NCBI GenBank assembly: GCA_963771075.1
Contig: CAVYSE010000008.1
Location: 1-64,000 of the forward strand
Origin: a candidate division FCPU426 bacterium
GTDB lineage: Bacteria; Oederibacteriota; Muellerivitia; Muellerivitales; Muellerivitaceae
Reading direction: 5' to 3'
DNA length: 64,000 bases
Positions within the stretch are counted from its first letter, which is position 1, and each line of letters opens with the position of its first letter. This document shows positions 13,496-44,801 of this stretch, piece after piece. The notes below the pieces were generated by a model, which worked only from the letters and a program-made list of their open reading frames with translations, had not been told where the DNA came from and did not search any database. The translations under genes and the position numbers were made by a program.

Positions 13496-13532
13496 GTTGC
13501 ACACCATCCTTTTTGGGAGGGCCATGTGCAGG
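13496..13532 (+). repeat. 37-bp CRISPR-like repeat, copy 1
   Basis: GTTGCACACCATCCTTTTTGGGAGGGCCATGTGCAGG, identical to five other copies. Confidence 0.97.
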
Positions 13533-13967
13533 TCTTTCTTCGTAGGTTTGTTTTAGATCCTTGTTAATTTTAGAAAAACACCTTCTGGAAAACTCGTGGA
13601 TCGTCATTACCTTTGGAAAATTCACGCTGTTAAGCACGTTTCCAAAATTCTTTTTTAACCGTCTTTTAAGTTCATCGGTGGCATCATTGGAGTATGTAAT
13701 AAAAAGAAGTTTCTGGGGGGAAACACCCCGGTCCACTAAGAGCTTGGCCCTTTCGACCACTACCCTTGTCTTCCCCGCTCCCGCCCCAGCCATAACCAAG
13801 TTTTTCTTAAAGGGGCTCGCCCATGCTTTGGCTTGATGTTCGTCGAACCCATCCGGAGCAAGTTCTGATTCTACATCCCAAACCTTTTGATCAATCTCTT
13901 TGAAATAAGACCAAAATAACTTCTGAAGAAGTGGAAACCGAAACAAAAGGGTGTGGAAGTTATTCAT
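13533..13967 (-). pseudogene. UvrD/Rep helicase N-terminal fragment ending at repeat copy 1
   Basis: Q motif, AGAGAGKT Walker A, ITYSNDA and VMTIHEF; no Walker B, and the sequence ends in the repeat. Confidence 0.85.
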
Positions 13968-13970
13968 GAT

Positions 13971-14462
13971 TTATTGAAGGATTTGGGCATTTTTTCCTTT
14001 GAGGGGCCAAACACATATTCCTTTTCGTTTAAAAAAATTGACGGTAAGTGCCCCTCGTTCCCTGGCTTTGGAGCCCGGCTTTTCGATGGCCTTTTTGATG
14101 GCGGCTCTTTCTGCCTCATAGATGGCCTGTGTTCTAAAATCCTCATCCAAAATTACCAATAAAACACTGTGCCACGGTTTTTCGAGCTTGATAATACCCA
14201 CTCTCTGCGCCTTTTTAGAATCTTTGGGGAAACTGCGCCCTTTGATTTGAACCCTTTTCTTCTTTCCCCTCCTGGTCCAAATACCGTCGTAACCTGGGGT
14301 CCTGGCCCCGGTTAATTTGAGGTTCTTTAGTAGAACAGATGCGGAAAACTCAGCTACTTCCCCGGTTATACCAAGGGGCTTACCGGTCAAAGAGCGGTAT
14401 TTCTTAGCCAGGAGAATTGCATCAGAAAGGATTTTCTGGATGGTTTTGGAGTTGGTGGTCAT
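13971..14462 (-). CDS. PD-(D/E)XK-type nuclease-fold protein (DUF6998-like)
   Basis: GITGEVAE...PGYDG...RVQIKGR. Confidence 0.6.
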   Translation of the reverse strand: MTTNSKTIQKILSDAILLAKKYRSLTGKPLGITGEVAEFSASVLLKNLKLTGARTPGYDGIWTRRGKKKRVQIKGRSFPKDSKKAQRVGIIKLEKPWHSVLLVILDEDFRTQAIYEAERAAIKKAIEKPGSKARERGALTVNFFKRKGICVWPLKGKNAQILQ

Positions 14463-14463
14463 C

Positions 14464-15186
14464 CTATACCTTTAATTTTTTTATCAAAGAAGGGCCGTCC
14501 CCGGAGAGCTTCTTGACTGGCCAGGCCTGCATTTTCTCGTCCGGATAGGGCCGCAAGAAGCCTTTTAAGGTGCCTTCTTCGGTTAGGGATCTATCCAGCC
14601 AGGCGTCCCAATTCTTCTGTTCCAGGATCACCGGCATACGGTTATGGATTCCAGTCATCATCTTATTAGGTGTGGTAGTGATGATGGAAAAGGTTTCCAC
14701 TACCTCCTTTTTGGGTTCGTACTTGGGATTGGTTTTCTTTTTTTTGATAATGGTGGCTTCGTCGTCCACCGTCATGTTCCAACGGCCCCAAATCCCGGCA
14801 AAGGCGAAAGTATCGTTCGTTTTTAGGCTAATGAAGTAGGGCTGTTTTATCTTCTCAGTAATCGCCTTCCATTCGTAAAAACCGGTCGTCGGGACCTGGC
14901 AACGGTCCTCCCGGAAGTGTTTTGAAAAGGTTTTCTTTTCGGTGATGGTTTCCCCGACCGCATTGATCAGCCTATAGATATATTTTTTTGACTTCATATC
15001 AAAGAAGGGCATGGACCATTTGACCTGGTCCAGCTCCCTCTTGCCGGTTTCAGGGTTGATCCGGACAATGGGGGCCTTGGTGGTGGGCATTATGTTGTAA
15101 CGGGGTTTAAAGGACTCGTAGGGATCCGCCTGGAATTGCTTGGCTACCTTACTGTCGGGGGTATCAAGGGTATAGCGGCCGCACAT
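14464..15186 (-). CDS. SOS response-associated peptidase (SRAP)
   Basis: MCGRY, RYNIMPT, GFYEW, HNRMPVIL. Confidence 0.92.
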   Translation of the reverse strand: MCGRYTLDTPDSKVAKQFQADPYESFKPRYNIMPTTKAPIVRINPETGKRELDQVKWSMPFFDMKSKKYIYRLINAVGETITEKKTFSKHFREDRCQVPTTGFYEWKAITEKIKQPYFISLKTNDTFAFAGIWGRWNMTVDDEATIIKKKKTNPKYEPKKEVVETFSIITTTPNKMMTGIHNRMPVILEQKNWDAWLDRSLTEEGTLKGFLRPYPDEKMQAWPVKKLSGDGPSLIKKLKV

Positions 15187-15208
15187 TTATTTTTTCCTTT
15201 TTAAAAAC

Positions 15209-16039
15209 TCATACTTTTTTTGGAGCTGTGGGGATGGCTTTGTCCAACCGTCGATGGAGAAAAGAAGCCAGAACTAATAAATCCATAGCATCTTGTTCTT
15301 CGATGGACCAGGTCACTTTTGGAGCATGCCCAGCAACATTTCGAAAAGCACCAAACATTCCCTTAATAAGGTTCATCAATCCTTTATGTTCACTTTGTTC
15401 GGTTTCTGTTCGAAGAGAATTAAAGGCTAGTATCGGGAAGCTCGAGGAACCAAGCCCAAAAGCCTTATCCACTAAATCGGAACCATCGCCTGTAAGTCCG
15501 CTTTTGTTTCTTATTTTTTCGGCAACACTTTTTGTGGCCTCGAAGACGGCGTGAAAATAATTGTCCTGCATTAATTCAGCTTGGCAGAAAAAAAGAACAT
15601 CCGCGTGAACGCCTCGAGCTTGAAGGGCACTCCGCAACCGTCCAGCCCGTGATTGTGCCTCATTCAATGTTCTGGCGTGTTCAATCCTTAACAGTTTGCC
15701 ATCTTCTCCCAGGGACATTCCACAAAAAGAAAGCACTTCGTTAAGGTCAATACGCCTTTTCAAAAACTTATTCGTATCCTGTAAGTAACGCGCAGGAGCC
15801 ATCGTGGCTTGAATGAAATTGGCGATTGAATTCCCACAATGATCATCGTTTTGTCTTAGACATAAGGCGTTAAAAAGCCTTTTATGTTTAGCGAGGGCTG
15901 GATTGGGGTCCTTAATTCCACATTGTTCCAGCATCCTCCCAATTTCCGTACCCGTTAGCCCATCCCCTGTGTCCGCCAAGACTTTGCAAATGGTTTCCAA
16001 TTGATCGGAAGTGAAATTCGAAATTGCAGCCATTTTCAA
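15209..16039 (-). CDS. TIGR02391-family protein
   Basis: NYFHAVFEATKS...DGSDLVDKAF...GMFGAFRN..HAPK. Confidence 0.85.
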   Translation of the reverse strand: MKMAAISNFTSDQLETICKVLADTGDGLTGTEIGRMLEQCGIKDPNPALAKHKRLFNALCLRQNDDHCGNSIANFIQATMAPARYLQDTNKFLKRRIDLNEVLSFCGMSLGEDGKLLRIEHARTLNEAQSRAGRLRSALQARGVHADVLFFCQAELMQDNYFHAVFEATKSVAEKIRNKSGLTGDGSDLVDKAFGLGSSSFPILAFNSLRTETEQSEHKGLMNLIKGMFGAFRNVAGHAPKVTWSIEEQDAMDLLVLASFLHRRLDKAIPTAPKKV

Positions 16040-16138
16040 CCTCTTTTTTTGGAAACAAAGCCTTAAGCCTGTTACTTCCTTTGGGTTGGTAAAGTAATTG
16101 AGACTTGGTTTCGAAGGCGAAGCAAAACCTTGATAACT

Positions 16139-18662
16139 CTAATGGTTTAATTTCTCAGAATATTTACCGATAAATTCATCAGGGGTAAGGTGAAATTGAA
16201 CTTGCAATTCAGCAATTTTTTGGACTTGCCACATTAAAGGGAGCTCCCGGGATAAAGCTTGGAAAAAACCGGTCAAATTATTTAATAATAAATCAATTGT
16301 TTTTGGCGTGATGGCCCGGGTCCCGTTTGGAAAAATTGCCACCTTGTCCACGTCTAAAACTTTAGAAACTATAATTGGAATAATCGCGCCTTGCCTAGCT
16401 TGATAGTTTTTATTGAACCACGCAATGCTGTGAAGGAGTTGTTCCGCATCTTTTTTGTGAAGGGTTTTTTCATTTTCTGTTTTGGCTTCAATTACCATAC
16501 TAATTTTGGGCAAAAGCCAAAGGACGTCAGGCCCTTCACCAAAATCCTTTTCGGGCCGGAATCCTTCGGCACCAATCAGGACAGCAAGCTCTTTTATGGC
16601 TTCCTCAACAATTTTCGGACTCCCATCAAATGACAATCGTCCTCGTAGGCTAACTAATTCCGCAATAGCTCCATTTGGAGTTTCAAAACTCCGAAACCAT
16701 TCTAAAATTTTGTTTTGTCCATCGTATTTATCCGTTGCAGGTGGACGACGGACGGTTTGCGGAGGGCAAAACAAAGAGCTGTTCTTTTCGTGAGCCGCAC
16801 CCTGGATTTCTAAAGCCCTACCGGGATTTATTTCGAAAACATAATTCGCAATACGTTGTAAATACCAGCTTTCTACCTTTGGAGTTGGCTTTGTTTCGTC
16901 GATTCCATCTTGCAAAAATTTTACTGCACCATCAGGATTATTAGAAACTGCCGAATTGAAGGCTTGCCTTTCACACGAAGCCATCTTGAGGTTTGAGGTA
17001 TTAGACCGTTCCAAGGGAGGCGTTATTCTTTTCCGTATTCGTTCGTCGTAAAACTGTTTCCAACCTTCGTCCCGTGTAAGGCATTTCCTCATCATATCAA
17101 CAACCACAGCATCTATTTTCCCACTACTTACACCTTCCTCTTGGGCGGCCAGTTCCGTCAATTCTAAAGCGAGTTTTAATTGTTCTTTTGTATCCGGGCT
17201 CATCAAAATCCTGGACTTCTTTCCGAACAATAAAGCTTGCCAATTGTGGGCCTGCTAAAATAACCACTGCATAATCAACATGGGACCGGACCGCCCTTCC
17301 CATTCCTTGCTCAATCCGATAAACAATGCGATTTCTGATACCACCGGCGATTGCGTTCTTGTTACTGTCGTGCTTATCAATAATTCCCTCCCCATAGGGC
17401 ATCCCATCAATAACTAAAATTCGGCAAGCGTTATCAGGCAGGTCAACGCCATCGTATCTTTGAGCAAAAACAACAAATTTCACATCAGACGAAGTATCTT
17501 TCAGATCCTTTACCGCCTGAGAGACTTCTTCGCGCATTACAACTTTTGCACCATGTTGCTCCCACTCTTTTGCAAGTTGCTCACTTGGAGAAAGTACAAC
17601 AACATTAAATCGGTTGGAAACCCTGGCGCAAAACCCCATTACCCAATCACGATCCAATTTTTCGTTTATAAGGATGGGGGCCAAAACCATGCGCTCACCC
17701 AAGCCTTTATCTGATAGTGGCAAAATTGGGTAGGTTGCAGCATGAATATCGCATCCAAGCTCCCTAACAAGCACAGAATCATCTGCCAAAGTTGCAGACA
17801 TGAAAAGGCGATGTTTTGCTTCAAAATAAGGCAGGCTTTTTTCTACAGGTAAGATTTCGGGAATGATTTCAATTGCGGAACTTGCAACCACACATCGGCA
17901 CCATCGTAAAATATCCCTTATCATTGGCCAGACAAATATTAATTCCCTATCCTCTGCGTGTTTAGCAAGTGTCTTTTGGATTTCAGCGATATATGGTTTC
18001 CAAATCCAAAATGGAACCTCAAGAGATTCGAAAGGAGGGATATCATTCAAAATATCCTGCCAAACACCGGTTTGGTATTTTTCGCATTGTGGCCCAAGTA
18101 TCTTGAGAAGTTTGTCATAGATTTCGGAACTTTTAGGAACCCTAAGGGTAAAAGAATTTCTGACTTCTTCAACACCTGCATGGGCATCATCCATGACGAT
18201 AGCGTGTGGCCTAAGTTGGACATTTGGATGATTGAACGTTGTTTTTGCGTTGAACAACTTTGCGTAAGTACAAATTATTATCGCCTTCCTTGCCGTTCCT
18301 TCCGTTGGCGGCAGTTGTTCCTTGGCAGGATAAACCACCGCTTTGATCCCTAACTTTTCCGCCTCCTCCTGGACTTGTTCCACCAACTGAACTGTCGGGC
18401 ACAAGTACACGACTGGCTCGTCCTTTTCTTGCATATATGATTGTAGATAGAGGAGCGCCACGGTCGTTTTGCCGGCACCGGTACTAATTTTTAAAACATG
18501 GTCTTTTTCCTCCCGACGTTTTCCCAATTCCTGGAGGGCTTCGATTTGAACAGGCCTTAATTCAGTATGCGACGATTGACGATCGAGGGATTCGAATAAC
18601 TTGATAAGGTCGGCGGGGTTAACCTCGCTTTTTTTCTGGACAAGTTTTTTAAATTCGACCAT
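16139..18662 (-). CDS. SF2 helicase plus C-terminal PD-(D/E)XK nuclease (Hna-like), frameshifted near 17205
   Basis: STGAGKT, DDAH, MSAT, DGVDLP and QGMGRAVR in ORF 17124-18662; GPDVLW...VIEAK in ORF 16139-17230; removing one A from the run at 17205-17208 joins them. Confidence 0.75.
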
Positions 18663-18761
18663 ATATTTCCTCTCGTATCTTTTTCTTTTCCCTGTTTTTA
18701 TTGGCCTTGATTCGTTCCAAGAGCTTGGAGGCGGGTTCGTCGTTGGGGCTTTGGTAGACTT

Positions 18762-21500
18762 TTATTTATCGAAGAGAGTTTTTTCATACCCGTTGCTAAA
18801 CTCTTCCAAGCCAAGTTCTTCGTGTCGTAATTCGTCAAAGCCTTCAAAATCATTGATTGTTGCAATTTCAACAGCGGTAAAACCCTTTCTTTCCATCACT
18901 TTGTCCACAAGGAAAAAGGTTTGAACTCCACCTTCTTTTTCCAGTAGTTTTAAAGCTTTTTTTCGGTCATCGATTTGTTTAGCTTCAGCCAAATGTTTTC
19001 CTTTGACATCAACCACAACCCACTTTCCATTGAAATAGCCAAGAAAATCCGGATAAAAAGGGGCGGGCCTCACCTCGACCAAATATTCAATATTAGGTTC
19101 GTTTCTTATCCAGAAACTTTTCTTTTTTTTATCCAAAGAACATAAGCGTTCAAGTGCATCGGCGACCCATTTTTCGGGGGGTGAATCAAATTTAACATAT
19201 GGGCGGATGGAAAATTTATAACCCTCAACAATAATACCTTTTTGTTGTTGGTGTGACGTCATTTCTTGGTAGGAAGGAATCAAGTTTATTGATTTTCCGT
19301 CGATTTTTCGAACAGTAACTTCGCGATTTAGAAATAAGCTCTTAACATTTTTAACTTTAAAATTAAACTGGCTTTTGAACATTAATTCAAATGACTTTTT
19401 GCCATAAAAATCTATTATGCTTTTTTTTAATGCTCTGAGAGCCCGTTGGTAATCAATCCCATAAGCGGTATCAACCTGTATCCCGGAACCAATAATTTTT
19501 TCTATTAGTTTTTTTACAAGATCAAAAGAATTGTTTCCAACAAAGGAGCCGGTTTGTTCAATAAACTCCAAGGCCCACCTGGCCATTTCGCTCTTAGAAA
19601 GGTCTATTGTCCGACGCGTAGTGGCCGGTTTGTCTTTTTGTAATTCCACTTCGTCTCTTGTTATCTCTGCATAATCTATCATTGCCAAAACTTCTGGTTT
19701 CAAAACCTTTTCGCCCTTTGAAAGGCCACAAACCTCGTCGATAAAAACACTAACACTTACTGATTTATCCTTTAAAACATCTTCAAAACTAACGTTGGTT
19801 GAAACAGGTTTAATTTGTAAAATCGGAATTTCATAATCACCCATTAATTCAGGGTTAATATTATTAGGTCTTGTTTCTTCCTCCGTCGGAACTTCAATGT
19901 TCGATGGGGTTAAATCCAAATTTTTTCTAATCTCATCCACAATTTTGTCGAAACGCCTGCCCCTTTCACAAATAATATGCAAAATTTCGCTTTGCTCCTT
20001 TAAATCATTTGCCAAAATGTCAAATTCCCTTTTTTCTTTATAAAGTCGAAGACCCCTTCCGATTAGTTGAGCGGCGGCGAGACCGACCTTCTCGACGGTA
20101 TCTCCCAAAACAACAATCGTATAAAAATTATCGTAATCAACACCTTCCGAGAAAATACGAACCTGGTTAACAATTTCGGCTTTGTTATCATCAAGTGATT
20201 GATATTCCGCCCAAACCTCCTCCTCGCTTCTGTTTTCGCTGTGAATAGTAAAAACCGATTTGGCAACAGTTGATAACCTTTTAATTAAAACTGACTTATT
20301 TTTTCCAGCGGATTGGCGAATGATTTTTGCTATATCCGTACCTTCTCTATTCACTTGTTCCAACACATCATCTAATTCCTTTTTGACCGAATCCGGCCAA
20401 TTTTTTAGATAACTGTCTATTAATTCGGCGTGTTTAATTGATCTCGCCTTTGTTAATAACATTGCCTTTCTAACCGGAGCGTTAACAGATACTAAAGAAT
20501 CTCCCTTTAACAAGTGAATAAGCATACCCCAAACCAATTTTTGCTTGTCACTTTCAGTAACTTCATCAGAAATCTTTTCTTCGCTTGTTCCACACCCAAC
20601 AGCAAATATCCTTTTTCCGTATCCTTCGTTTATGTACCTCTGCATTGGGTATTTGTATAAATTATCTTGTCCCAAAATATCTTTACCGCCCTTTTCTATT
20701 GAAGTTGCGGTAAATTCAAGAACAACACTGGGCAAAAAGTCCAAAATTGCTTCTGCCGTCTTGGTTTGTTGGTAATGGTGAGCTTCATCCGAAATAATTA
20801 CAGGATGACGTTCCCGTAAAAAATCGACGAAAGAAATAGTATTATTGCCTGTTTTGTCCCGCCACAAGGAATCCTCTAAGGGCCGACGTACATATGGGAC
20901 ACCTCTCATTGAGTCCCCAAATTCTTTTTGGTTTAATGGAGAACTTTTGTCATAAAATTTCTGCATGTTAAATACATAAAAAGAAATGTCGCGATCTTCT
21001 TCATAGTTGCAAGTTTTGTCCCGGTAGGAATTACCAGTTACCATGTTATAAGTAACGTTCCAGCCATCTCCAAAAATGCTTTTAACAGTTCGGGGAGTAA
21101 AATTTTCGATCGTTTTATCAAATAAAATCGTATTAGGGGTCAAAATCAAAAAGTCTCTATGGCCCCGGTTCCACAAATCTAAAATTACAGCCCCCATTAA
21201 AAGTGTTTTCCCTGAACCGGTAGCCATTTCAAAACCGACTTTGTTCCACTGAACAATTTTCCCCTGGTCGTTTTTACCGGTTTGGGTTGTTTTTATTTTT
21301 AAACTCCGGCTATCAAAGCCATCTTTCCAAAAAAGCTGAAAAGCCGCCAAGGCCTCAACCTGGTATGGCCGCAAGTTGTGTTTAAGAAGGGTTTGAATCT
21401 TTTTATAATTTTCAATCTTTTTAGGGGAGGAAGAACCAACCACAATTTTGTACTGTTGATCTTGTTTGACTAAATCGTAAAAGGTTTTTTGTATTTTCAT
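18762..21500 (-). CDS. res: Type III restriction enzyme Res subunit
   Basis: EMATGSGKT, DEAHH, QLIGRGLR, C-terminal FYPDF...VDVKG; directly follows mod. Confidence 0.85.
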   Translation of the reverse strand: MKIQKTFYDLVKQDQQYKIVVGSSSPKKIENYKKIQTLLKHNLRPYQVEALAAFQLFWKDGFDSRSLKIKTTQTGKNDQGKIVQWNKVGFEMATGSGKTLLMGAVILDLWNRGHRDFLILTPNTILFDKTIENFTPRTVKSIFGDGWNVTYNMVTGNSYRDKTCNYEEDRDISFYVFNMQKFYDKSSPLNQKEFGDSMRGVPYVRRPLEDSLWRDKTGNNTISFVDFLRERHPVIISDEAHHYQQTKTAEAILDFLPSVVLEFTATSIEKGGKDILGQDNLYKYPMQRYINEGYGKRIFAVGCGTSEEKISDEVTESDKQKLVWGMLIHLLKGDSLVSVNAPVRKAMLLTKARSIKHAELIDSYLKNWPDSVKKELDDVLEQVNREGTDIAKIIRQSAGKNKSVLIKRLSTVAKSVFTIHSENRSEEEVWAEYQSLDDNKAEIVNQVRIFSEGVDYDNFYTIVVLGDTVEKVGLAAAQLIGRGLRLYKEKREFDILANDLKEQSEILHIICERGRRFDKIVDEIRKNLDLTPSNIEVPTEEETRPNNINPELMGDYEIPILQIKPVSTNVSFEDVLKDKSVSVSVFIDEVCGLSKGEKVLKPEVLAMIDYAEITRDEVELQKDKPATTRRTIDLSKSEMARWALEFIEQTGSFVGNNSFDLVKKLIEKIIGSGIQVDTAYGIDYQRALRALKKSIIDFYGKKSFELMFKSQFNFKVKNVKSLFLNREVTVRKIDGKSINLIPSYQEMTSHQQQKGIIVEGYKFSIRPYVKFDSPPEKWVADALERLCSLDKKKKSFWIRNEPNIEYLVEVRPAPFYPDFLGYFNGKWVVVDVKGKHLAEAKQIDDRKKALKLLEKEGGVQTFFLVDKVMERKGFTAVEIATINDFEGFDELRHEELGLEEFSNGYEKTLFDK

Positions 21501-21501
21501 T

Positions 21502-23262
21502 TTATATTAGGTTATATTCCCGCAAAATTGTTGCCGGTATTTTTTTTACCAAGATGCGATCATCCAGTAATGACGGCGGAACCGAAACCGAAACATTTGT
21601 AAAAATTGTTAGGTGTTTGAATTTATCCTTTTCTAATCCAACAATAACCTTTTCGTATAATTCATCTGTAAGGGTTTGAACCTGTCTTGTGGCAAAAGAA
21701 AGGGCAAAATGATAACGAGTTGACTGATGCCTCCCCAGGTGCATATTAAAATTCTCAAGCCACTCTGCTTTGATCGGGCGGTATTGAAAATGCAAAAAGA
21801 TTGCCTCGGCCATCTCCTCTGCCTTCAAAGACCAATTGATATCCTGTTCAAAAATCAAACTTTGCCCCAATTCATAATATTTAAACCCCCCTCCCCCTTT
21901 CCAACCAATTTCCTCCATTGTACTAATACCGGTTTTATCTGGTTTTGCGGAAGAAATTACCGTATTTAGTCTTTTTAAACAGTGGGTTTCCGCATGATTA
22001 CCAAATTCTATTCCAACCCACTTCCGGTTCATTTTGTGGGCTACGGCCGCGGTAGTTCCTGAACCCAAAAATGAATCCAAAACCACATCTTTTTCATTAC
22101 TAAAATATTTCATTAGTTTCATTATTAATGCTTCCGGTTTTTTGCCACTTTTTAATTCAACCCCGCCTTCATGACTACAATTACCAAACTCACCCGCCAT
22201 ATTCCAAAAGTTTTCAATCGATTTTTTCTTAAAGGTAGCCTTATCGTCGTTTAAAATTTTAGTAGGGACACCTTGAAAATATTTTCCTTTTGTTGCCCCT
22301 ATCCTAAGTGGGCCTGTAAAATATCTATAATCGTAATTGTCCTCGCCAATATCGTGGACTTTGTATATGGAACCTAAACCGTCTTCTTTTACACGGCCTG
22401 CTAAAAAATCCCTAAAAAACCTTCCAGAAGAATTAATGTCTAAAATTGTTCCAGAAGCCCATATTTCCTTTAAACCCTTTTCAGAGGGTTTTCCTTCTTT
22501 TATCGAATACGACCCTTTTTTAAATATCTCAACCTTTTTTCCTCCAAGTTCGATGGTCTTTTTAGGTGTACCATTTTCTCTGATATACCAATGAAATTTC
22601 TGAAAACTATATTTCAAACTTTCTTGGTTTACTTTACTTGAAGGTGAGTTTTTATAAATAAAAATTTGTTCAATCAGGTCGTGAAAAACTCTATCTTGTT
22701 TTAGAGTTTTCTTTGGATAAACTGTTTGGACGTAAATGACCCCAAAAAAGTTATCTCTTCCATACACTTCGTCCATCAAAACCTTTAAATAATGAGCTTC
22801 TACATCATCGATTTGGACACAAATTATTCCGTCTTTTCTTAATAACTTTTTAAGCAAGATGAGCCTATCTCTCATCATTGCCAACCACTCAGAGTGTTGC
22901 AAGTTATCGTCATATTTTTCGAAAGCGCTTCCCGTGTTATAAGGGGGGTCAATATAAATAAATTTGACCCTTTCCTTTTCAGGTTTGCCTTTGAATACTT
23001 CGATCAAACTTCTTAAAACCAATAAGTTATCCCCTTTGATAAGCATATTGGTGCTTGTTTCGTCCCCGTAAGCCTTGATGAATTTTAAGATACGAGGTTC
23101 TGCAATACGGATGTCGTTTTTAGGTACCCATACTGGGCGTACACCTTTACCCTCTTTTTCATCAATTTCGTAATAAAGAGAGTAACCTTTATTTATCCAA
23201 TCAAGCCGAAGGGATCCTTTGTACAATTTACCTTTGTTAATATTTGATTCTTTTAAAACCAT
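21502..23262 (-). CDS. mod: Type III Mod DNA methyltransferase
   Basis: IYIDPPYNTG, KKPEAL, VLDSFLGSGTT. Confidence 0.92.
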   Translation of the reverse strand: MVLKESNINKGKLYKGSLRLDWINKGYSLYYEIDEKEGKGVRPVWVPKNDIRIAEPRILKFIKAYGDETSTNMLIKGDNLLVLRSLIEVFKGKPEKERVKFIYIDPPYNTGSAFEKYDDNLQHSEWLAMMRDRLILLKKLLRKDGIICVQIDDVEAHYLKVLMDEVYGRDNFFGVIYVQTVYPKKTLKQDRVFHDLIEQIFIYKNSPSSKVNQESLKYSFQKFHWYIRENGTPKKTIELGGKKVEIFKKGSYSIKEGKPSEKGLKEIWASGTILDINSSGRFFRDFLAGRVKEDGLGSIYKVHDIGEDNYDYRYFTGPLRIGATKGKYFQGVPTKILNDDKATFKKKSIENFWNMAGEFGNCSHEGGVELKSGKKPEALIMKLMKYFSNEKDVVLDSFLGSGTTAAVAHKMNRKWVGIEFGNHAETHCLKRLNTVISSAKPDKTGISTMEEIGWKGGGGFKYYELGQSLIFEQDINWSLKAEEMAEAIFLHFQYRPIKAEWLENFNMHLGRHQSTRYHFALSFATRQVQTLTDELYEKVIVGLEKDKFKHLTIFTNVSVSVPPSLLDDRILVKKIPATILREYNLI

Positions 23263-23330
23263 TTCTGGTTTCCTTCTCGCTCAATTTTCAAAAAAACTCC
23301 TCAAAGTGAAATTTAAGATTTTTGTTAAAA

Positions 23331-24182: not shown

Positions 24183-24193
24183 ATGGTTGTTCC

Positions 24194-25267: not shown

Positions 25268-25300
25268 TTTTTGTACTCAATTCCTACTTCTTTTTAAAAA

Positions 25301-32061: not shown

Positions 32062-32098
32062 GTTGCACACCATCCTTTTTGGGAGGGCCATGTGCAGG
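32062..32098 (+). repeat. 37-bp CRISPR-like repeat, copy 4
   Basis: Exact copy. Confidence 0.97.
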
Positions 32099-34505: not shown

Positions 34506-34773
34506 GATTGATAAGGCTAACCAACGACCATACACCGTAAGGCGTATGGAAGGCGGGGGGTGTCACACTTTTGGACCGCCCACCGTCACACTTTTCGAGC
34601 GGCGCGGACATCCATACTAGCCTCCACAACATTCATTCCATTTAGACGCCCAACACTTAAATTCAATTCCTGATTTTTAATTCTCTCCTTCTGATTATTG
34701 CAAATTTAAGGCATATCCAGTGTAGTGTTGACACAAAGAAAAAACAAATATAGTCTAACCAACGATATGCATT

Positions 34774-34971
34774 ATGGAATCGAGGGGAAATATCATGGTA
34801 AAAGAAGTAAAAAAACCGCAACAAAATTCTTCTCTTGAAGCGTTCATGGAAGAAATTCACAAGCTTGCGGAAGAGAATTATAAAAAGAGAATCGCGTCCA
34901 ACAAACCAGGCGATGCGCTCTCCGACTGGTTACAAGCGGAAAAAGAAGTTAAGAAAAAACACAAGCTGTAA
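34774..34971 (+). CDS. DUF2934-like small protein
   Basis: IHKLAEENYKKR...GDALSDWLQAEKE. Confidence 0.7.
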   Translation: MESRGNIMVKEVKKPQQNSSLEAFMEEIHKLAEENYKKRIASNKPGDALSDWLQAEKEVKKKHKL

Positions 34972-36009: not shown

Positions 36010-37377
36010 GGGTCTTCTCCAAAAGTTGTGGGTAAAAAATCATAGCTAAAAGTCAGTTAAGCCTTTCCCTGTAACGAATTTCAGGCCTTGATGGGTCCGA
36101 AAAACTTGTCATGCTTGAGGAATGAAAAACTTCAAGCGTCTGTATGACACCTACCGATTCCCCGGCTTTATCCCCCGAGTCACGCTCAAAGGATTATTTG
36201 GTGACCGGTGCGCCCGGATCATTTCCCTACGCCGCCGGGGAAAAAAACGATTTGTGGAGCCTGTGGAAAGGTTTCTCGGACCTTTTACGACCACAAGACC
36301 AGGCTGGTGCGCGACAAGCCTTGCGGAGACTTGCGTATTTACCTGGAAATGGAAGTCCGGCGTGTGGACTGCAAGGACTGCGGTGCTGTGAAAGGTGAAC
36401 GGCTTTCCTGGCTGAACAACCCCTTCTACACCAAGCGGTTCGCCTATTACGTCGGCAAACGCTGTCAAAACACCACGATCCGCGAAGTGGCCGATGAACT
36501 TTGCCTGGATTGGAAGACCGTGAAGTCCATGGAAATGGACTACATGCGGGAAAAGTTGAAGCGAGCAGGTAACCCGACACCTCGAGTGTTGGGGATGGAT
36601 GAAATCTCGGTTCGCAAGGGGCACAACTACCGGATCGTGGTGAGTGACCTGGAACGTGGTCGGCCCATTTGGTTTGGTGGAAAGGACCGCACGGAAGAAA
36701 GTCTGGATCTGTTCTGGGAGGAATTAGGCCAGAAAAAGGCCGAAAAGGTTCGGTTGGTGGTCATGGACATGTGGGAGGCGTTCGAGAATTCCACGGTTAA
36801 AAACGCGACTCAGGCGGCCATCCTCTACGACAAGTTCCATGTGATGAGAAAACTAGGCGAGGCCATGGACGCCATCCGGCGGTCGGAATATAGCCATCTT
36901 CCAAAAGTGGAAAGGGGTTATCTCAAGGGGAACCGTTACATCCTGCTGTCTCATCGTCAAAACCTGGACTTGAAAGGTCGAAAAAGGTTGAAGGCGCTAT
37001 TGGCGGTCAACCAGCGATTGAATACGGCCTATGTCTTGAAAGAGTCCTTTGGTCAACTTTGGGACTACAAGTACTCGGCCTATGCTGAAAAATTCTTTGA
37101 GAATTGGAAGTCATCCTTGAAGGGTCAAAATCTGAAGCCATATGAGAAATTTTCACAGACGGTGGAGAGGCATTGGGAAGGAATCGTGGCGCACTGCAAG
37201 CCGGAGAACAAGGTTTCATTGGGGTTTGTGGAAGGGTTGAACAACAAGATTAGGGTGATTCAGCGACGGGCTTACGGTCTTCGAGACCCTGAATACCTGC
37301 GGCTCAAGGTGCTGACTTGTACCCTACCCAACTTCTGAAAATACCCCTAAACTACCCACACGTTTGGGAGAAGACCC
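36010..37377 (+). mobile_element. ISL3-family element
   Basis: IRs GGGTCTTCTCC / GGAGAAGACCC; 8-bp target duplication TCTTTTTT at 36002-36009 and 37378-37385. Confidence 0.95.
36122..37338 (+). CDS. ISL3 transposase with a frameshift at GGGGAAAAAAA (~36237-36247)
   Basis: CGAC/CKDC zinc finger, LGMDE, DMW, DKFHV, EGLNNKIRVIQRRAYG. Confidence 0.9.
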
Positions 37378-37855
37378 TCTTTTTTGTATTCAGCCTGTGT
37401 GTAATTGTGTGCGAACGTAAGATGGGTATGAGTGATGGCCCTGTAGGATTTATGGCAAATTTTGCATTCAATCATGAGCCCACCAACGGGGACAGGTTGC
37501 CCCCATCATTTATTTTGATCTCTTGTCCAACCCAGTTTCCCGTAGCGGCAAGTTTATTCTTTTTGATTTTAACCTATCCCGGCAGGGTAGGGACGGAAGA
37601 AAGCCATCTGGCTTTGGAGGAATTACCTATCAGACCTTGATGAAATCGAGATGAAGCCCTCGAAGCCAAATCTTTTAACTTTTTTCGCCGTTAATTTCGG
37701 ACTCGATTCTTTCACAAGCCGTTATGATTTTCCCGAAACTTGGCGGGTTTAAGATCAATCCCGCCTCCGTTATTACACCGGCTTCATTTCGTAAAATTCG
37801 TTGCGAAGTCCCCAATCATTCAGCCATAGGTTACCCCTAATATTCCATTGCAGAG

Positions 37856-39052
37856 TTAACTTTGCCCCGCCCAATAAACCACTGGTTTTTCCAGAAACGC
37901 TTCAATAGCAATTCCCTGATTTCCCACCAATAAGGATCGTTTCGGCTTAAAGGCTTTGGTAAAGGAATCAAGCCCGGGCAAAAGATTTTTTCCCATACCG
38001 CTTTTCACTTCGATCGCTGTTAATTCCTTCCCTCTTTTCAAGACGAAGTCCACTTCCTGATTTCTCTCGCGCCAATAAAATATTTCCATGTCCGTTCCAA
38101 TACAGCCGTTGACCAGGTGGGCTCCTACCGCCGACTCCACCCATCGGCCCCATGCCTTCGGGTCCTTGCGAGCTTGATCAAATGTCAGGTCCTGGCTGAC
38201 CGAGTAGAGGGCGGTATTCAAAACCTGCCATTTGGGAATGGAACCTCTTTGCCGTACTTTCTGTCCAGAGTATTTAGAAAGCCCCGTTAGCATTCCGACT
38301 TTTGACAACAATTCCACATAATGAGCCAAGGTGGTGGTATTCCCCGCGTCCTGCAGTTGTCCCACCATTTTCTGGTAAGAAAGAATTTGGCCGGAATACT
38401 CGCACCCCAGCTGAAATAACCTCCGCAATAGTGCGGGTTTGTCGACACGGGTCAAAAGAAGGACGTCACGCGAGAGGGTTGTTTCGATCAGGGAATCCCG
38501 AAGGTACTGGGTCCATCTCTCGGGCTCACTAATGAGGGAAGCTGAGCCGGGATACCCACCGTAATAGATATATTTTTCCAAGGTCCATCCAAAGGCCTTT
38601 TTCATTTCACTAAAAGACCAGTGGGTGATCGGGATGGTTTCAAACCTTCCAGCAAGACTTTCGGTGAGACCTTTCTGAATTAAAAGAGGCGCGGACCCTA
38701 AAAGGGCCACTTTGAGGGACACCCGATGGGCCGTATCCTCGTCCCAAAGACGCTTGATGATTTCCGACCAATCGCCAATTTTTTGAACCTCATCGAGGAT
38801 CAAAACCGCGCCAGAGTTCTTCTTTTCCCCGGCCAATAACCGCGCCTGATCCCACTGTTTTTGAATCCACTGAGGGTCACGAAGGGAGGGTTGGTCGGCG
38901 GAAGCGTAATGGTGTGGCGTTTTCAAGGATTTGAGGACCTGCCCCACCAGGGTCGTCTTACCCACCTGGCGGGGACCCGCCAAGACTTGGATAAATCGAC
39001 GGCTTTCTTCCAACCGTTCTTTTAGGATTTCCGCCTGATGTCTTTGATACAT
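37856..39052 (-). CDS. AAA_14 ATPase with DUF4143
   Basis: GPRQVGKTT, LDEVQ, ESLAGR, EVDF...IEVKSG. Confidence 0.9.
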   Translation of the reverse strand: MYQRHQAEILKERLEESRRFIQVLAGPRQVGKTTLVGQVLKSLKTPHHYASADQPSLRDPQWIQKQWDQARLLAGEKKNSGAVLILDEVQKIGDWSEIIKRLWDEDTAHRVSLKVALLGSAPLLIQKGLTESLAGRFETIPITHWSFSEMKKAFGWTLEKYIYYGGYPGSASLISEPERWTQYLRDSLIETTLSRDVLLLTRVDKPALLRRLFQLGCEYSGQILSYQKMVGQLQDAGNTTTLAHYVELLSKVGMLTGLSKYSGQKVRQRGSIPKWQVLNTALYSVSQDLTFDQARKDPKAWGRWVESAVGAHLVNGCIGTDMEIFYWRERNQEVDFVLKRGKELTAIEVKSGMGKNLLPGLDSFTKAFKPKRSLLVGNQGIAIEAFLEKPVVYWAGQS

Positions 39053-39245
39053 GGAGCACCTTTACAATTTACTCAATATGGTGAGTTATTTTACTCAACG
39101 TCCAGAACGATCGTCAAGACTCGCTTTCATGGTGCTAAAAAAATCTTTCTAAGGCGTACCGCACCACATCTTCCATTATGTATAGCCCCCACTTTCTTAT
39201 TCCCCAAAAAAACCACCAAGCGCAGCTGAAAGTATGGCACTATTA

Positions 39246-39494
39246 TTACACTGTGATTTTGATATCAATGTCCTCCGAGAATCGGTTGATGGCGTTGTAG
39301 GCTTTGGAAAGCGACGTGCCACCCTTGAAGGTCAGCGATGGGGCAATTGCGGACTTGAACAGCATTGACAGGGTCCAGACGACCCAAACATCCTTTTCCA
39401 ATAGATAGGCCGGGCGGCCAATCCTGGCTGAAGCGGCCTTTAGGGCTTCTTTCCGGTCCGCCCGTGAGAGCGAAAAATAGGACTCAGCCACGGT
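39246..39494 (-). pseudogene. AbiEii nucleotidyltransferase toxin, N-terminal fragment
   Basis: EKDVWV, FKGGTSLSKAY, RFSEDID, then an abrupt stop. Confidence 0.85.
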
Positions 39495-40080
39495 GGCCGG
39501 CTTCACCCAGCAATCTGGCGATCCATTCAGGGAATGAAGCCCTCGACGCGACCAGCAGCTTCCATTCTTCCTTGGAAAGTTTTTGGTGGATTTTGGACAA
39601 AGCCTCCTGCCCATGCGCCTGACCTATCCAAGCCAATGCGCGCACAGCCATTCCAGCAGGACGGTTGCCCAAGGATAATTGCCAGCGTGGGGCATGTGTG
39701 AATCGAATAATGCGATTCCCAAGTTTCATTGTGCGATTCCTGCCTGAGGTGAAGAACACTTCCTGGACGGGTACCTGAGTAGTCAAACCAAGGGCGTTGG
39801 CCGCTACAGCCCCATTAGGAGCCACTTCCTCGCCTTTTTTAACGGCGATAGACTTAATAACGGATTCCGGAGAGGGAGAACGACTGCCAAAACGGCCTTC
39901 CACGGGGACCACATACGCTCCGCGCTCAACCCGAATCAATTTCCCTGCTTTCGTCAGGCGGGTAAAAGCCTGGTCCACGGCGGCGCGGGTGTTGGAACCC
40001 AAAAATTCCTTGGGGGACAATACGCTTCCCTCCGGCATTGCCTTGGACGAACTAAGAATGGCTTCAATGAGGGGACTCAT
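39484..40080 (-). CDS. AbiEi-type antitoxin (DUF6088-like)
   Basis: RAAVDQAFTRL...GAVAANALGLTTQVP; upstream of AbiEii. Confidence 0.85.
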   Translation of the reverse strand: MSPLIEAILSSSKAMPEGSVLSPKEFLGSNTRAAVDQAFTRLTKAGKLIRVERGAYVVPVEGRFGSRSPSPESVIKSIAVKKGEEVAPNGAVAANALGLTTQVPVQEVFFTSGRNRTMKLGNRIIRFTHAPRWQLSLGNRPAGMAVRALAWIGQAHGQEALSKIHQKLSKEEWKLLVASRASFPEWIARLLGEAGHRG

Positions 40081-40223
40081 GGGAATAAACTCCTTTGTCA
40101 GAATTATATGTCAGTTTCTGACATGTTTCAAGGGACCATCTTTGGGGGTCTCAGAGGCTGTAATTGGCGCTCGCAGATTGGACAGCTAGAAACCAGGTTT
40201 TTGAGGGTGTAACGGACAGGAAT

Positions 40224-41675
40224 TCATTTCAACCCCAGCTTGTGCCGTAGGGCAGGAACATCGGGTTTCAGTAGATTGTTTCCACCCCTTTCTGAGTTCC
40301 GCTCATATTGATAAAGAAGCGCTTCCAAAAGTTCGCGTCCCTCGGGAATTTTGGCGGCTTGGCGCGGGGTGAGTCCTCCCAGGGCCGGAATCTTCTCGTC
40401 AAACCAACTTTCCCACTGCTTCGTAGCCATATGGGCCATGGCTTCCCGGACTTCGGGGCTTTCCTGAAGCTCTCGATCCGGCGCTAATGGTTTCCCTGCC
40501 AGCCCGCCCTTCATGTTTTTTCGGGCCGATTCGGGGGATTGGAGAGTGAGCCCCACGAAGGCGGCGTCCTGGCCCATGCGTTTTTCAATCTCCTGCCTTA
40601 TCTTTTTCGCGCGCTTCTCCGAGTTGACTTCCGCTGTGATCTTCCCCGGTTCCAGAACCAGAGCGCCCATGACCGTGCTGGTCCAAGATTTCATTTTCTG
40701 GTTGCCCTTCTTTAGCCATGAGAATTCTAACCGGCAGATGGCACCCGAGGGGTCCCGTGCGGCGTCGTCCCGGATATCTTCAAGTGTCCTCTCGAAACAA
40801 AGGGAAGCCAATCGGGGAAAAGCTGCCTCCACAGTGACCTTCAAATCGAAAGTCGCCTTGCAGAACATCAGGGGGTCGCCGTCGGTGTTGCACAGTTGGG
40901 GTGGCAACGGATTTTCGACGCTTTTTCTCATCCTGAAATAGGTTTCTCGGAAAAACGCATCCATTAACAAAAGCAGGATTTCGTCGGGGATTCCCCGCGA
41001 CTTTTTGACTTTAGACACATCTTCCCGTAGTTCAAGGATATGGCCCAGGTATTCAGGGGGAAGGGGTATCATCCCGGCTCCCATCAGGATGTTCGCATCG
41101 GGAAACCTCAGGACTCTCGAAAACAGGATGTCCCCTGGTCTAGCGTTTTCGGTGGCGGCAACCTCCGCCACTTCCACTTCGCCGCCTAGGATCGTGTCCC
41201 GAAGCAGTAGGGCGGGTCCCGGTTCCACCCGGCGCACCTGATAAAAGCTATAGCGCGCACGCATCAGAGCTAGTAGGAACCCAGTCTGATCCTCCCGAAG
41301 ATTTTTCTCTTGTTCAGCCAGATAGGCGGCAGCTACCGTGGGACGGGGGTAATCCGCCTCTGGGCCTGAGAGCTCAGACGGCGTCCAGATCGAGCCGATC
41401 CAGGGCATAAACATACCGAAAAAATCAGGGTCATCCTCGGGGATATCGCCGTCGAACAGTCCTTTCGCAAAAACCTTCAGCGCCCGGTCATAATCCTTTG
41501 GGTTGAAACGATCCCGAGCGTAATGGGCCAGTTTTGGGATGAGATCGCCCTCTAGTTCCCGATAACGCCGCCTAGCGAATTCGCGTTCCTCCCCAGATTT
41601 CCTCAGGCAACACTGCTTATATTTTTTGCCGCTTCCACAGGGACAACGATCGTTTCTTCCTGGTGATTTAGACAT
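40224..41675 (-). CDS. SEC-C domain protein
   Basis: GRNDRCPCGSGKKYKQCC; C-terminal W.DEKIPALGGLTPRQAA. Confidence 0.8.
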   Translation of the reverse strand: MSKSPGRNDRCPCGSGKKYKQCCLRKSGEEREFARRRYRELEGDLIPKLAHYARDRFNPKDYDRALKVFAKGLFDGDIPEDDPDFFGMFMPWIGSIWTPSELSGPEADYPRPTVAAAYLAEQEKNLREDQTGFLLALMRARYSFYQVRRVEPGPALLLRDTILGGEVEVAEVAATENARPGDILFSRVLRFPDANILMGAGMIPLPPEYLGHILELREDVSKVKKSRGIPDEILLLLMDAFFRETYFRMRKSVENPLPPQLCNTDGDPLMFCKATFDLKVTVEAAFPRLASLCFERTLEDIRDDAARDPSGAICRLEFSWLKKGNQKMKSWTSTVMGALVLEPGKITAEVNSEKRAKKIRQEIEKRMGQDAAFVGLTLQSPESARKNMKGGLAGKPLAPDRELQESPEVREAMAHMATKQWESWFDEKIPALGGLTPRQAAKIPEGRELLEALLYQYERNSERGGNNLLKPDVPALRHKLGLK

Positions 41676-41978
41676 GAAAACTCCGGATTCATCTACTTTT
41701 CGGGCATGGGGAATTATAGATAACAACATTACCACAACAAAGGGCCTTTTATTCCAGGCGAGATATTACAAAGGCAGTATGAACCTTCATTCAATGGCCT
41801 TCCCAGGTTAGGGGATATTGTTCGAAAATAACCCTCAGCTGCGGTTCTCTTTTTTAAAATCTCCTCCGCGAGCTTTTGAATTTCTACATAGAATGCTTCG
41901 AGAGATAGTTTTTGTTGCGGTTTTTTTTCTTCTTTTGCCGTGATAATAACTCATCTTCTATTCAGCATTACATATTAT

Positions 41979-42205
41979 TCAGATTTCCCTGATAAGCTTC
42001 TCTGGAAACGTTGGCACTTCATAAACCTGGTACTCCCTTGTCGGAAATAAGGGGTAGCACCAGACGCACCGCCAGGGGAATATCCGCGACATCGACACGG
42101 CTCGTCTTGACCAACGCGACCGACCGCTCCATGGTATCCGCCAACTCGCGTACATTTCCGGGCCAGGCATAGCCGAGCAGTTGTTCCTCGGCCGAGGCAG
42201 TAAAT
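41979..42205 (-). pseudogene. Sigma-54 activator C-terminal fragment starting at repeat copy 5
   Basis: LLGYAWPGNVRELADTMERSV; everything upstream is missing. Confidence 0.85.
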
Positions 42206-42242
42206 GTTGCACACCATCCTTTTTGGGAGGGCCATGTGCAGG
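42206..42242 (+). repeat. 37-bp CRISPR-like repeat, copy 5
   Basis: Exact copy. Confidence 0.97.
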
Positions 42243-42736
42243 GGTCCATCGTCTCGAATAATTCAAAATCGGCCGAAAAGTTCATCCACGGGATTAAGGT
42301 CTTAATGGCCAAAAACTACGTGGATAACCTCTCTGAGGAAACTCGCAAGGGGATGACTGAAAAGGCGGCGGAAGGGATATGGCCATCCGCCGCTCCCCTT
42401 GGTTACAAGAACATTGCCGGGCGTGACGGCAAGCGAACCATAAAGCCGGATTCCAAAATGAGCAGGATCATTTATTCCCTGTATAAGGACTATTCAACGG
42501 GGCGTTATTCCCTCACTGAAATAACTAAGAGGGACTGGAATAAAGGGTTGGTGGTCCGGAAAAGCAAAAAGATTCTTTCCAAGAGTACAGTTTATAAAAT
42601 TCTAACTAACCGGATGTATACGGGGGTGTTCCAATGGAGAGAGATAAATTATCGGGGTAAGTACAAGCCTATCATTCCGCAAAAACTTTGGGATAAAACC
42701 CAGAAGGTTATGGAAAAACACTTCAAGTTAAGATAA
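42243..42736 (+). pseudogene. Large serine recombinase fragment lacking the catalytic N-terminus
   Basis: EKFIHGIKVLMAKNYVDNLSEETRKGM...APLGY...ILTNRMYTG...PIIPQKLWDKTQ. Confidence 0.85.
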
Positions 42737-42791
42737 TCAGTAGTACTGAGTGTTCCTTTTGGGTCCCCATCATGGACAAAACTTTTCTTCA

Positions 42792-43937
42792 TTACGACAG
42801 TTTCATCCACCAGGGCGGTTGAAGTTTATGGGGCTTGCGGCCCACGGCAAATGGTGCGAGATCCATTTCCGTTTTCCCGTCCAAAATCAATTGCGTCATC
42901 AGGTGTCCACTAGCGGCTGCCAGAAGATGCCCATGCGTGTGGTGGCCCGCCGCGATAAAAAGCCCGTCCGTTCCCGGAACCGCGCCCAGGAAAGGGTGGC
43001 CGTCCACCGAACCGGGGCGGAAACCGGCGAAATAACCCGACACTCGTAGCGGCGACAAGGTCGGTGCCATGCGCCTGGCCGCAGTCGCCAGGGTCGCAAT
43101 GCCTTCAGGTGTCACAGCCCGCTCAAACCCGGCTTTTTCCAAGGTACTCCCGACGTACAATTCGCCGCCCCGGCGCGGCACCATATAGTACCCGGTCGCG
43201 AAGAGGATATGCTTGATCCCTGAAGGGGGACCTTGAAGAAGCAGTACCTGTCCCCGAAGGGGATACACCGGCAAATTGATCCCGAGCGGGCTCAATAGTT
43301 CCGGCGCCCAAGCCCCAGTGGCCAACACCACTGCGTCGGCTTCGATCATCCGTTTGCCTGTTTTCACCCCTTGAATTTTTCCGCCGCGAACCACCAACGA
43401 CTTCACCGGTTCGTTGGAGTGAATAGGCACTCCGGCTTTCCATACCGCTTTCACCGCCGTCAGACACATGGCTGAGGGGCGAATCTGGATGGTTTCGGGC
43501 AGGTACATGGCCTTGCGGACATCTTTCGGCAAGGCGGGTTCCTTGCGGCGAGCTTCCTTGTTGTTCAACCACCGAACCACCATACCCAATTGCTCCAGGC
43601 GTTTCGAAAGCGTCCTCGCGTTCTTTTCTTCCATCGCAGAAAACAAAAGCCCCATCGAACCCGACTTCTCCCATTCGGGGTCCACCCCGGAGACGCGGTG
43701 AAGTTCCTTCACCCAGGACGGGTACAGGCAGTAGGACAAACGGCTTAGTTCATAGAGTTCCGGGGTATCGAATGCCACACTGTGGAGGGGCAACATCCCC
43801 GCACCAGCGGCGGATGCTTCTTGCGCGGGCTCGTGACGATCCAGAACTACTGGCCGTGCACCGCGTTTTTTGAGGTGCCAAGCGATGGAGAGGCCGACGA
43901 GGCCCCCACCCACCACGAGAACTTTTGTTTTATTCAT
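42792..43937 (-). CDS. thiO: Glycine oxidase / FAD-dependent D-amino-acid oxidase
   Basis: VVGGGLVG, ASAAGAGML, P.RGQ, GFRPGS.DGHP. Confidence 0.8.
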   Translation of the reverse strand: MNKTKVLVVGGGLVGLSIAWHLKKRGARPVVLDRHEPAQEASAAGAGMLPLHSVAFDTPELYELSRLSYCLYPSWVKELHRVSGVDPEWEKSGSMGLLFSAMEEKNARTLSKRLEQLGMVVRWLNNKEARRKEPALPKDVRKAMYLPETIQIRPSAMCLTAVKAVWKAGVPIHSNEPVKSLVVRGGKIQGVKTGKRMIEADAVVLATGAWAPELLSPLGINLPVYPLRGQVLLLQGPPSGIKHILFATGYYMVPRRGGELYVGSTLEKAGFERAVTPEGIATLATAARRMAPTLSPLRVSGYFAGFRPGSVDGHPFLGAVPGTDGLFIAAGHHTHGHLLAAASGHLMTQLILDGKTEMDLAPFAVGRKPHKLQPPWWMKLS

Positions 43938-44104
43938 GTTTTCTCCCAGGTTCAGAAAAAAAGGGTCGGATCGCGGGCTGGCGCGACGATCTCTTGGTTT
44001 GGTTTCCAACCTTCAACATTTCGAACATAACATTTGGTTGTCCAGGATGGGTCCCCGTCATGGACAACCCGTTACATTTAGAGCGAAGTAAAATGGAACA
44101 AGGA

Positions 44105-44413
44105 TTAAGCTGTGTGGGCGTGGATCCGCAGTTCCGTCTTTACCCAGCCAGCGCGTTGAGCAAGGCGAAGATCGTAATCCGATTGAAGTGTGAGCCAGGT
44201 TTCGGGCGAAACGCCGAAATACTTCCCCAGACGTAAAGCAGTGTCAGCCGTAATCGAGCGGCCCGCATTGACGATGCCGCTGATGCGGTTGGGCGGAACG
44301 ATGATGTCGCGTGCCAGTTGATTGATACTGATACCCATGGGTTTCATAAATTCCTCTAAAAGCACTTCCCCGGGATGGATGGGATCCAACTTTTTCGCTT
44401 TTGTATTCATCAT
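44105..44413 (-). CDS. higA: HigA antitoxin
   Basis: PIHPGEVLLEEF...ITADTALRL...WLTLQ..YDL. Confidence 0.93.
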   Translation of the reverse strand: MMNTKAKKLDPIHPGEVLLEEFMKPMGISINQLARDIIVPPNRISGIVNAGRSITADTALRLGKYFGVSPETWLTLQSDYDLRLAQRAGWVKTELRIHAHTA

Positions 44414-44419
44414 TTCACC

Positions 44420-44698
44420 TCAGTGATAATCGACTATCTCAACGTTTATGGCTTCGCCCTCGTGCCAAGTAAAACAAATTCTCCATTGGTCGTTGACGCG
44501 GATGCTGTGCTGGCCTTTTCGATCGCCTTTCAACGCCTCCAACTGATTACCCGGCGGCACCCGTAAATCTTCGAGTCTTTTCGCGGCGTTCAAGTAGAGA
44601 AGTTTCCTCCGGGCCACGCGTTCAATATTCCTAAAACGCGGAACAACATTGTCCAGAAAAAGGGATTCAACCTCTTTATCTCGAAAAGTTCGAATCAT
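44420..44698 (-). CDS. higB: HigB toxin
   Basis: DLRVPPGNQLEALKGDRKGQHSIRVNDQWRICF...IVDYH. Confidence 0.93.
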   Translation of the reverse strand: MIRTFRDKEVESLFLDNVVPRFRNIERVARRKLLYLNAAKRLEDLRVPPGNQLEALKGDRKGQHSIRVNDQWRICFTWHEGEAINVEIVDYH

Positions 44699-44764
44699 AA
44701 GTTATGCTATTACGAGGTGCGTAATAGGTCAAGTGAAATTGACAAAATGTCGCGAAAAGAAGGG

Positions 44765-44801
44765 GTTGCACACCATCCTTTTTGGGAGGGCCATGTGCAG
44801 G
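44765..44801 (+). repeat. 37-bp CRISPR-like repeat, copy 6
   Basis: Exact copy. Confidence 0.97.

Follow-up and report, generated by a model that had tools for sequence, protein, structure and literature searches.

A Cas1-Cas2 module as the probable integrase behind arrays of kilobase inserts in a candidate division FCPU426 genome

We analysed the first 64 kb (64,000 nucleotides, hereafter the window) of contig C8 from the genome of a candidate division FCPU426 bacterium (G000, the host; 4.39 Mb, 96.7% complete, a draft of 28 contigs with 3.2% contamination). The window holds six copies of a 37-bp repeat that separate long blocks of DNA (Table 1), and a cas1-cas2 module adjoins the same type of repeat elsewhere in the genome. 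An earlier reading of this DNA from its letters only (the sequence-only reading) had described six identical, co-oriented copies with sharp edges, whose flanks share only one extra G in four copies, and had given the block lengths; all of this was confirmed. The scan of the window returned six mismatch-free copies, all on the plus strand, against 0 matches in 100 rounds of shuffling, and the bases following copies 1 to 6 are T, G, G, G, G and A. The repeat is palindromic and folds into a hairpin whichever strand is read (z -1.9 and -2.3). Neither Rfam nor tRNA matches were obtained in the window. Relative to the leader described below, with the orientation taken from leader-linked copies in other loci, the array reads on the minus strand, as entered in Table 1, and copy 1 would be its oldest end.

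The sequence-only reading had called for an integrase acting at the repeat. A candidate is present in the same assembly, on contig C1, as a single unit made up of cas1, a variant cas2, a ~20-bp leader and the repeat. The cas1 gene (C1:44655-45659), the second of G000, matched PF01867 with 225 bits in the Cas1 profile search and the general cas1 profile TIGR00287 with 242 bits, above cut-off. In its product, the alignment columns that hold the catalytic residues of the I-E Cas1 are occupied by E, H and E (the last given as an acidic residue), so that the catalytic residues are intact. The open reading frame (ORF) after cas1, of 111 aa, has its stop 23 bp ahead of a one-base variant of the repeat and showed no Pfam or NCBIfam Cas2 match by sequence. 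The first matches of its structural model (pLDDT 84) were Cas2 structures, the best in the PDB being SSO1404 (E 2.9e-5), and the predicted fold confirms the ORF as a divergent cas2, in which W-x-T (W-x-T/S) replaces the canonical Y-D. The prediction of a Cas1-Cas2 complex scored 0.12 and is uninformative either way. The exact window repeat stands directly behind the leader in G001 (locus L057, with 243 bp of the cas2 end), in G002 (L036) and on a contig of sequencing run X2, and in G000 five further repeats are preceded by this leader together with 52-224 bp of the cas2 end.

No cas4 and no effector gene were found at the C1 locus, nor a polymerase gene among its ORFs. In G000, G004 and G047 there was no Cas4 or Cas12f/TnpB match, the Cas9, Cas12a and Cas13 profiles not being part of that search; the RAMP search does not detect I-E systems and so carries little weight. 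A 30-bp palindrome (window 44038-44067, with many copies on C5, C21, C26 and C4) separates gene cassettes in long co-oriented arrays, with no IntI over cut-off. In five copies of the module, in three genomes, the module starts at this palindrome with unrelated DNA upstream; the module may therefore travel as a cassette on the palindrome arrays, although a 3' cassette border was not found.

Across G000, we counted 29 full copies of the repeat within 5 mismatches of the one-base variant and one cut by the start of C13, i.e. 30. Seven co-oriented copies lie on C3, with gaps of 899, 764, 559, 104, 94 and 682 bp, four on C27 and two on C1, plus solo copies. The whole assembly was searched for a short-spacer array of the 37-mer, as the sequence-only reading had suggested: with 67 bp as the smallest gap, the repeat has no ordinary array in this genome. 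The ordinary CRISPR of G000 is a separate type I-E system with a different repeat. The type I-E CRISPR-Cas at L007 3838-13884 (C3) has an IS30 in its array, and the same IS30 (99.9%) occurs in a block of the kilobase array on C27. Genes resembling RAYT, the REP-associated tyrosine transposase, lie at most 250 bp past the last repeat of three arrays (C1:39620-40573, C27:43389 and C6:1544); in C15 and L059, repeats are directly adjoined or clipped by the RAYT end motif.

The origin of the inserts could be traced in several cases. Four inserts match repeat-free donors end to end, three of them at every position (559/559, 379/379 and 139/139) and the fourth over 7,247 bp at 99.96%. The joints show neither loss nor gain, the inserts share no terminal repeats, and their ends are not inverted repeats of each other (3-9 of 25 matches). 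The leader-side insert on C1 consists of dnaX, cut in its first ten codons, and a neighbour gene; colinear with the G015 chromosome over 3,347 of 3,477 bp at 72%, and 74% identical to the host's own dnaX, it is core DNA of an unsampled relative. Pieces of arrays are captured as well: in one array of G044, two repeats of the window type, separated by 7.8 kb, stand amid that array's own variant, and one block there is the module's own 3' part. A pair of repeats in opposite orientation occurs at L062 10253-10470 (144 bp apart) and another at L151 (G047:C3:400723-400905; 109 bp apart), as the reverse capture of a repeat-bearing piece would give.

Of the 12 junctions in the window, 6 could be matched to a donor or homolog (copy 2 left, 3 right, 4 right, 5 left, 5 right and 6 left), and none of these sequences has the repeat at the break or runs into the other flank. 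No intact homolog running across a copy was met among them, and simple insertion of the repeat, which the sequence-only reading had doubted, was rejected, because donors, wherever found, do not continue into the other flank. At copy 2, the right 2,772 bp of block 1 match G004:C2 at 98.6%, where the sequence continues without a repeat, and contigs of four studies stop matching exactly at 27632. The left end of block 3, right of copy 3, is 84% identical to G021:C76, where there is no repeat. The right flank of copy 4 is the left end of an IS21, two bases past the repeat and without target duplication, which is either a captured break made by the IS or a later adjacent deletion; this IS end is absent from the sequence-only reading. 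Left of copy 5, homologs of the broken gene (75-76%) and a contig of run X2 continue without a repeat; right of it, the headless gene encodes a serine recombinase lacking its first ~113 aa, 97% identical to whole copies at C8:80002 and on C6. These broken genes had been pointed out before, and so had the UvrD gene cut at copy 1, of which 145 aa remain, and the membrane-protein ORF running into the repeat right of copy 6. The ChaB-like ORF reported at copy 3 is no more than a lead, with an atlas score of 0.85 and without a Pfam match, and for the headless ORFs reported at copy 2 right and copy 4 left no donor was found at either junction; block 2 gave no donor.

The sequence-only reading had derived the blocks from randomly broken plasmid, phage and chromosome DNA. 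The chromosomal source stood, as DNA of relatives or of the host, including islands and IS elements, while no phage or plasmid source was traced, phage and plasmid collections lying outside the search. That the breaks are arbitrary held in part: they are mostly mid-gene, and no PAM or shared motif was seen by eye beyond the donor breakpoints, in a small sample, but the ends are not fully random. With the family's insert ends deduplicated by identity only and trailers included, C stands at position -3 from the joining 3' ends in 7/177 cases versus 22% expected (P 1e-11; 1/78 on one side, 6/99 on the other), and A/T predominates at positions -7 to -2; among 46 distal control positions, the lowest P was 0.02. 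The bias is alike on both sides and thus fits a symmetric enzyme gripping two ends. It is paralleled by family 1 casposase, for which GC-rich 3' ends are poor substrates according to PMC8464041.

The arrangement recurs in related genomes. The repeat was found in 7/41 genomes, namely the host, 6/24 others of its family and 0/16 outside it, with 0 for the reversed control; G044 and G041 carry it too, which makes at least 9 family genomes, some with megabase contigs. Counting co-oriented neighbours within 50 kb, and leaving out solo copies, opposite pairs, G018 and G041, we obtained 71 gaps in 7 genomes, with a median of 1,792 bp and a range of 30 bp to 46 kb. Among these, 45 exceed 1 kb and 8 exceed 10 kb; only two are of 50 bp or less (30 and 38 bp), and both adjoin a variant repeat or an IS end. 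G044 (= G047) has 11 repeats over 53 kb behind its module, and G004 (99% complete) has 10 repeats and the C1-type Cas1 as its only Cas1 match. This Cas1 type is present in 5/99 genomes of the phylum, all in the family; its 96-99% identity across four genera points to a recent spread. An IS66 (window 9587-12142) and an IS1380-type element (56253-57632) are ~100% identical in other genera, a sign of very recent DNA exchange in the family.

Farther relatives of the Cas1, at 56-73% identity, are Patescibacteria where labelled. In a 48-row tree, rooted at the midpoint and with its long branches flagged, the family Cas1 nests in a clade of 35 rows (support 100/99) beside Patescibacteria-labelled sequences. 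We read 58 loci of this clade: 48 gave a repeat motif behind cas2 (two of these, L115 and L127, miscalled) and ten gave none, while all 15 gaps seen measure 140-7,672 bp, without a short-spacer array in the 58 loci. No cas4, effector or short array lies beside any clade module read. The outgroup loci L134 and L139 have a canonical Y-D Cas2, a similar palindromic 37-bp repeat and spacers of 34-43 bp. Viral contigs, searched with two peptide patterns, gave no relative of the C1 Cas1.

Considering the module, the donors and the recurrence together, capture by an integrase at the repeat, as the sequence-only reading had proposed, is supported, and on present evidence the window locus is real and not an artefact. 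The best explanation is that a stand-alone Cas1-Cas2 integrase, descended from a CRISPR adaptation module, would use the 37-bp repeat as its target. This Cas1-Cas2 very probably works without a length ruler, joining both ends of broken DNA to the repeat and duplicating it. Two Cas1 active sites would each take one free DNA end, with a preference for A/T-rich, frayable ends; the ends would attack both borders of the leader-side repeat, and gap filling would duplicate it, as in spacer acquisition. The DNA between the ends would loop out rather than lie along Cas2, and its length would not be measured. The substrates may be broken pieces of relatives' incoming DNA and of mobile DNA from the host itself. 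Whole genes are present in inserts above ~2 kb, so the array would serve homology-independent gene capture and not guide-RNA storage; captured whole genes, such as the type III restriction-modification pair of block 1, would benefit the host, and gene capture may be a selected function. The most likely origin of the window array is transfer as a fragment of an array formed elsewhere, or else a later loss of its leader, because array pieces are themselves captured and moved. On balance, we lean towards a wider proposal in which a mobile, effector-less Cas1-Cas2 would be a general DNA-capture machine, inserting any DNA with two ends, be it tens of bases or tens of kilobases long, into a 37-bp site, logging horizontal transfer in order, delivering whole working genes (restriction-modification, toxin-antitoxin), spreading between phyla and riding here as a cassette on the host's 30-bp palindromic arrays.

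Several observations weigh against two-ended capture by this module. The window array has neither leader nor cas gene, copy 6 having no leader or cas2 end beside it, and the sole whole module in G000 adjoins a repeat one base off that of the window. No donor or homolog was found at the remaining 6/12 window junctions, and two of the six junction donors are weak, one being an IS end and the other the border of a toxin-antitoxin module, at which two donors diverge from each other as well. Inserts above 7.2 kb may each combine more than one event. No clade cas1 was found in G002, G003, G018 and G041 (89-99% complete), which carry repeats; in G044, a TAG interrupts the cas1 at the head of the 11-repeat array, and two further cas1 copies of that genome are whole. 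The end bias was not replicated in distant clade members (C at -3 in 10/70, P 0.15), many clade loci hold little sequence past the first repeat, and no trailer or insert common to different genomes was found, the trailer search returning only RAYT transposase copies.

A rival explanation is that the same Cas1-Cas2 acted mostly on one end, joining one broken end to the repeat while replication or recombination resolved the other side, so that the large blocks would be rearrangements or duplications. The many solo repeats, the leaderless arrays, the two opposite-facing pairs, the lack of conserved trailers and the 10-46 kb blocks without a traced whole donor agree with this, and a 1,081-bp block in G044, made of the 3' part of the module's own cas1, cas2 and the leader, looks like a tandem duplication whose end coincides with the leader-repeat border. 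However, for four inserts, each flanked by a repeat on either side, a single colinear donor accounts for both ends, and the two sides show the same end bias; as a general account, one-ended joining is improbable, although it may be a second route for the largest blocks. The same four inserts, which keep no leftover spacer, argue against an ordinary short-spacer array enlarged later by spacer-protospacer recombination and IS insertion. IS21, ISL3 and IS30 copies do lie inside blocks, 2/71 gaps are of spacer size and the outgroup arrays are normal; yet 69/71 gaps exceed 50 bp, no PAM was seen, the clade modules read have no effector, cas4 or short array, and the two small gaps adjoin a variant repeat or an IS end, which leaves this origin very improbable. 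Assembly chimerism at the repeat would be favoured by the 28-contig draft, its contamination and some duplicated contig ends. Since independent genomes (at least 9 in the family, several of them with contigs of megabase size) and distant Cas1 relatives show the layout too, chimerism is hardly credible; moreover, there is no short-spacer array to walk out of, and misjoins would not give exact two-ended donors. The search of sequencing runs returned shares of at most 0.2 and no run with the window array; run contigs cover donors only, and lack of cover is uninformative.

Cas1-Cas2 is known as a fixed ruler for DNA of 30-50 bp. The system described here resembles a CRISPR adaptation module in its Cas1, its Cas2 fold, the leader-repeat-insert-repeat layout and the palindromic 37-bp repeat, and the closest NCBIfam subtype profiles are I-G, I-D and I-C, none over cut-off. 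It differs by inserts of 30 bp to tens of kilobases, the absence of PAM, cas4 and effector, the W-x-T/S Cas2, the ~20-bp leader and arrays scattered over the genome, and it lacks the uniform short spacers of CRISPR-Cas. Like casposons, it uses a Cas1-family enzyme that would integrate long DNA and duplicate the target, and family 1 casposase integrates 7 nt to about 4,000 bp (PMC8464041). Unlike casposons, there are no terminal inverted repeats, the cargo is arbitrary, the integrase is not carried as a rule, Cas2 is present, no family B polymerase occurs among the locus ORFs, and the duplication is a 37-bp CRISPR repeat versus a 13-bp casposon target. Integrons also build tandem arrays of captured accessory DNA split by a repeated site; here, no IntI tyrosine recombinase passes the cut-off (best integrase match 42 bits of 265), and donors lack the site and are cut mid-gene, in contrast to whole cassettes with their own site, and the integron reading was rejected. 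The system is a member of neither the CRISPR-Cas types, the casposons nor the integrons: its targeting is like that of a CRISPR adaptation module and its substrate length like that of casposase. The proteins belong to known families and the novelty is the system built from them. No description was found in the literature searched, which did not extend to supplements and subscription journals; passages of PMC12669027 (the 2025 classification), PMC8390005 and 10.1101/2024.03.08.584096 do not mention such a system.

If true, a natural Cas1-Cas2 free of the ruler would represent an undescribed, homology-independent route of gene gain and a living link from transposition of the casposase kind to CRISPR adaptation, and would allow the determinants of spacer length to be tested. 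Genome writing and DNA recording would, likewise, profit from a site-specific integrase that consists of two genes and accepts kilobase DNA with free ends.

Table 1. Coordinates of the repeat copies, the blocks between them and other features of the window.
Feature	Position	Strand	Remarks
Repeat copy 1	13496..13532	-	exact match
Block 1, 14,100 bp	13533..27632	.	cut UvrD, SRAP, type III restriction-modification, S1/P1 nuclease, HTH
UvrD N-terminal fragment cut by repeat 1	13533..13967	-	PF00580 positions 3-98 of 271
Type III restriction-modification mod + res, apparently whole	18762..23262	-	PF01555, PF04851
Repeat copy 2	27633..27669	-	exact match
Block 2, 498 bp; 62-codon ChaB-like ORF running into repeat 3	27670..28167	.	
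Repeat copy 3	28168..28204	-	exact match
Block 3, 3,857 bp, 42% GC, unassigned ORFs	28205..32061	.	
Repeat copy 4	32062..32098	-	exact match
Block 4, 10,107 bp: AAA ATPase, DUF6088, SEC-C protein, gene fragment cut at right end	32099..42205	.	
IS21 in block 4	32101-34610		
ISL3 in block 4	about 36010-37377		
Repeat copy 5	42206..42242	-	exact match
Block 5, 2,522 bp: headless serine recombinase, FAD oxidoreductase, HigA/HigB-like toxin-antitoxin pair	42243..44764	.	
Repeat copy 6	44765..44801	-	exact match
Start of 45,717-bp stretch up to the co-oriented repeat (one-base variant) at C8:90519	44802..64000	.	
Repeat-free donor, internal 559 bp of IS1380-type transposase gene	57024..57582	.	identical to whole insert C3:412649-413207 of the second array

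The stretch after copy 6, which opens with the membrane-protein ORF cut by the repeat, may be one insert or several. A tetranucleotide test of foreign origin placed blocks 1 and 3 at the 97th and 94th percentiles and blocks 2, 4 and 5 in the ordinary range, and is uninformative.

Additionally, a module of S1/P1 nuclease, small ORFs and DnaJ zinc-finger gene is present twice in the window as a diverged duplicate (24194-26874 and 45575-47060, 73-94% at the nucleotide level) and also in G004, G014 and G020. Positions 1-4896 of the window are identical to the start of C12 in reverse, and C3:1621 and C13:37 share 2 kb at 98%; these shared stretches are either duplicated segments or a strain mixture in the assembly. 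Block 4 contains a 105-nt inverted repeat (34791-34895 and 41841-41945), 81% complementary, with arms 6.9 kb apart that overlap short ORFs. Finally, a diverged family of intergenic repeats of ~84 nt (60-85%) occurs at window positions 12259, 25186, 46369, 50850 and 59302.

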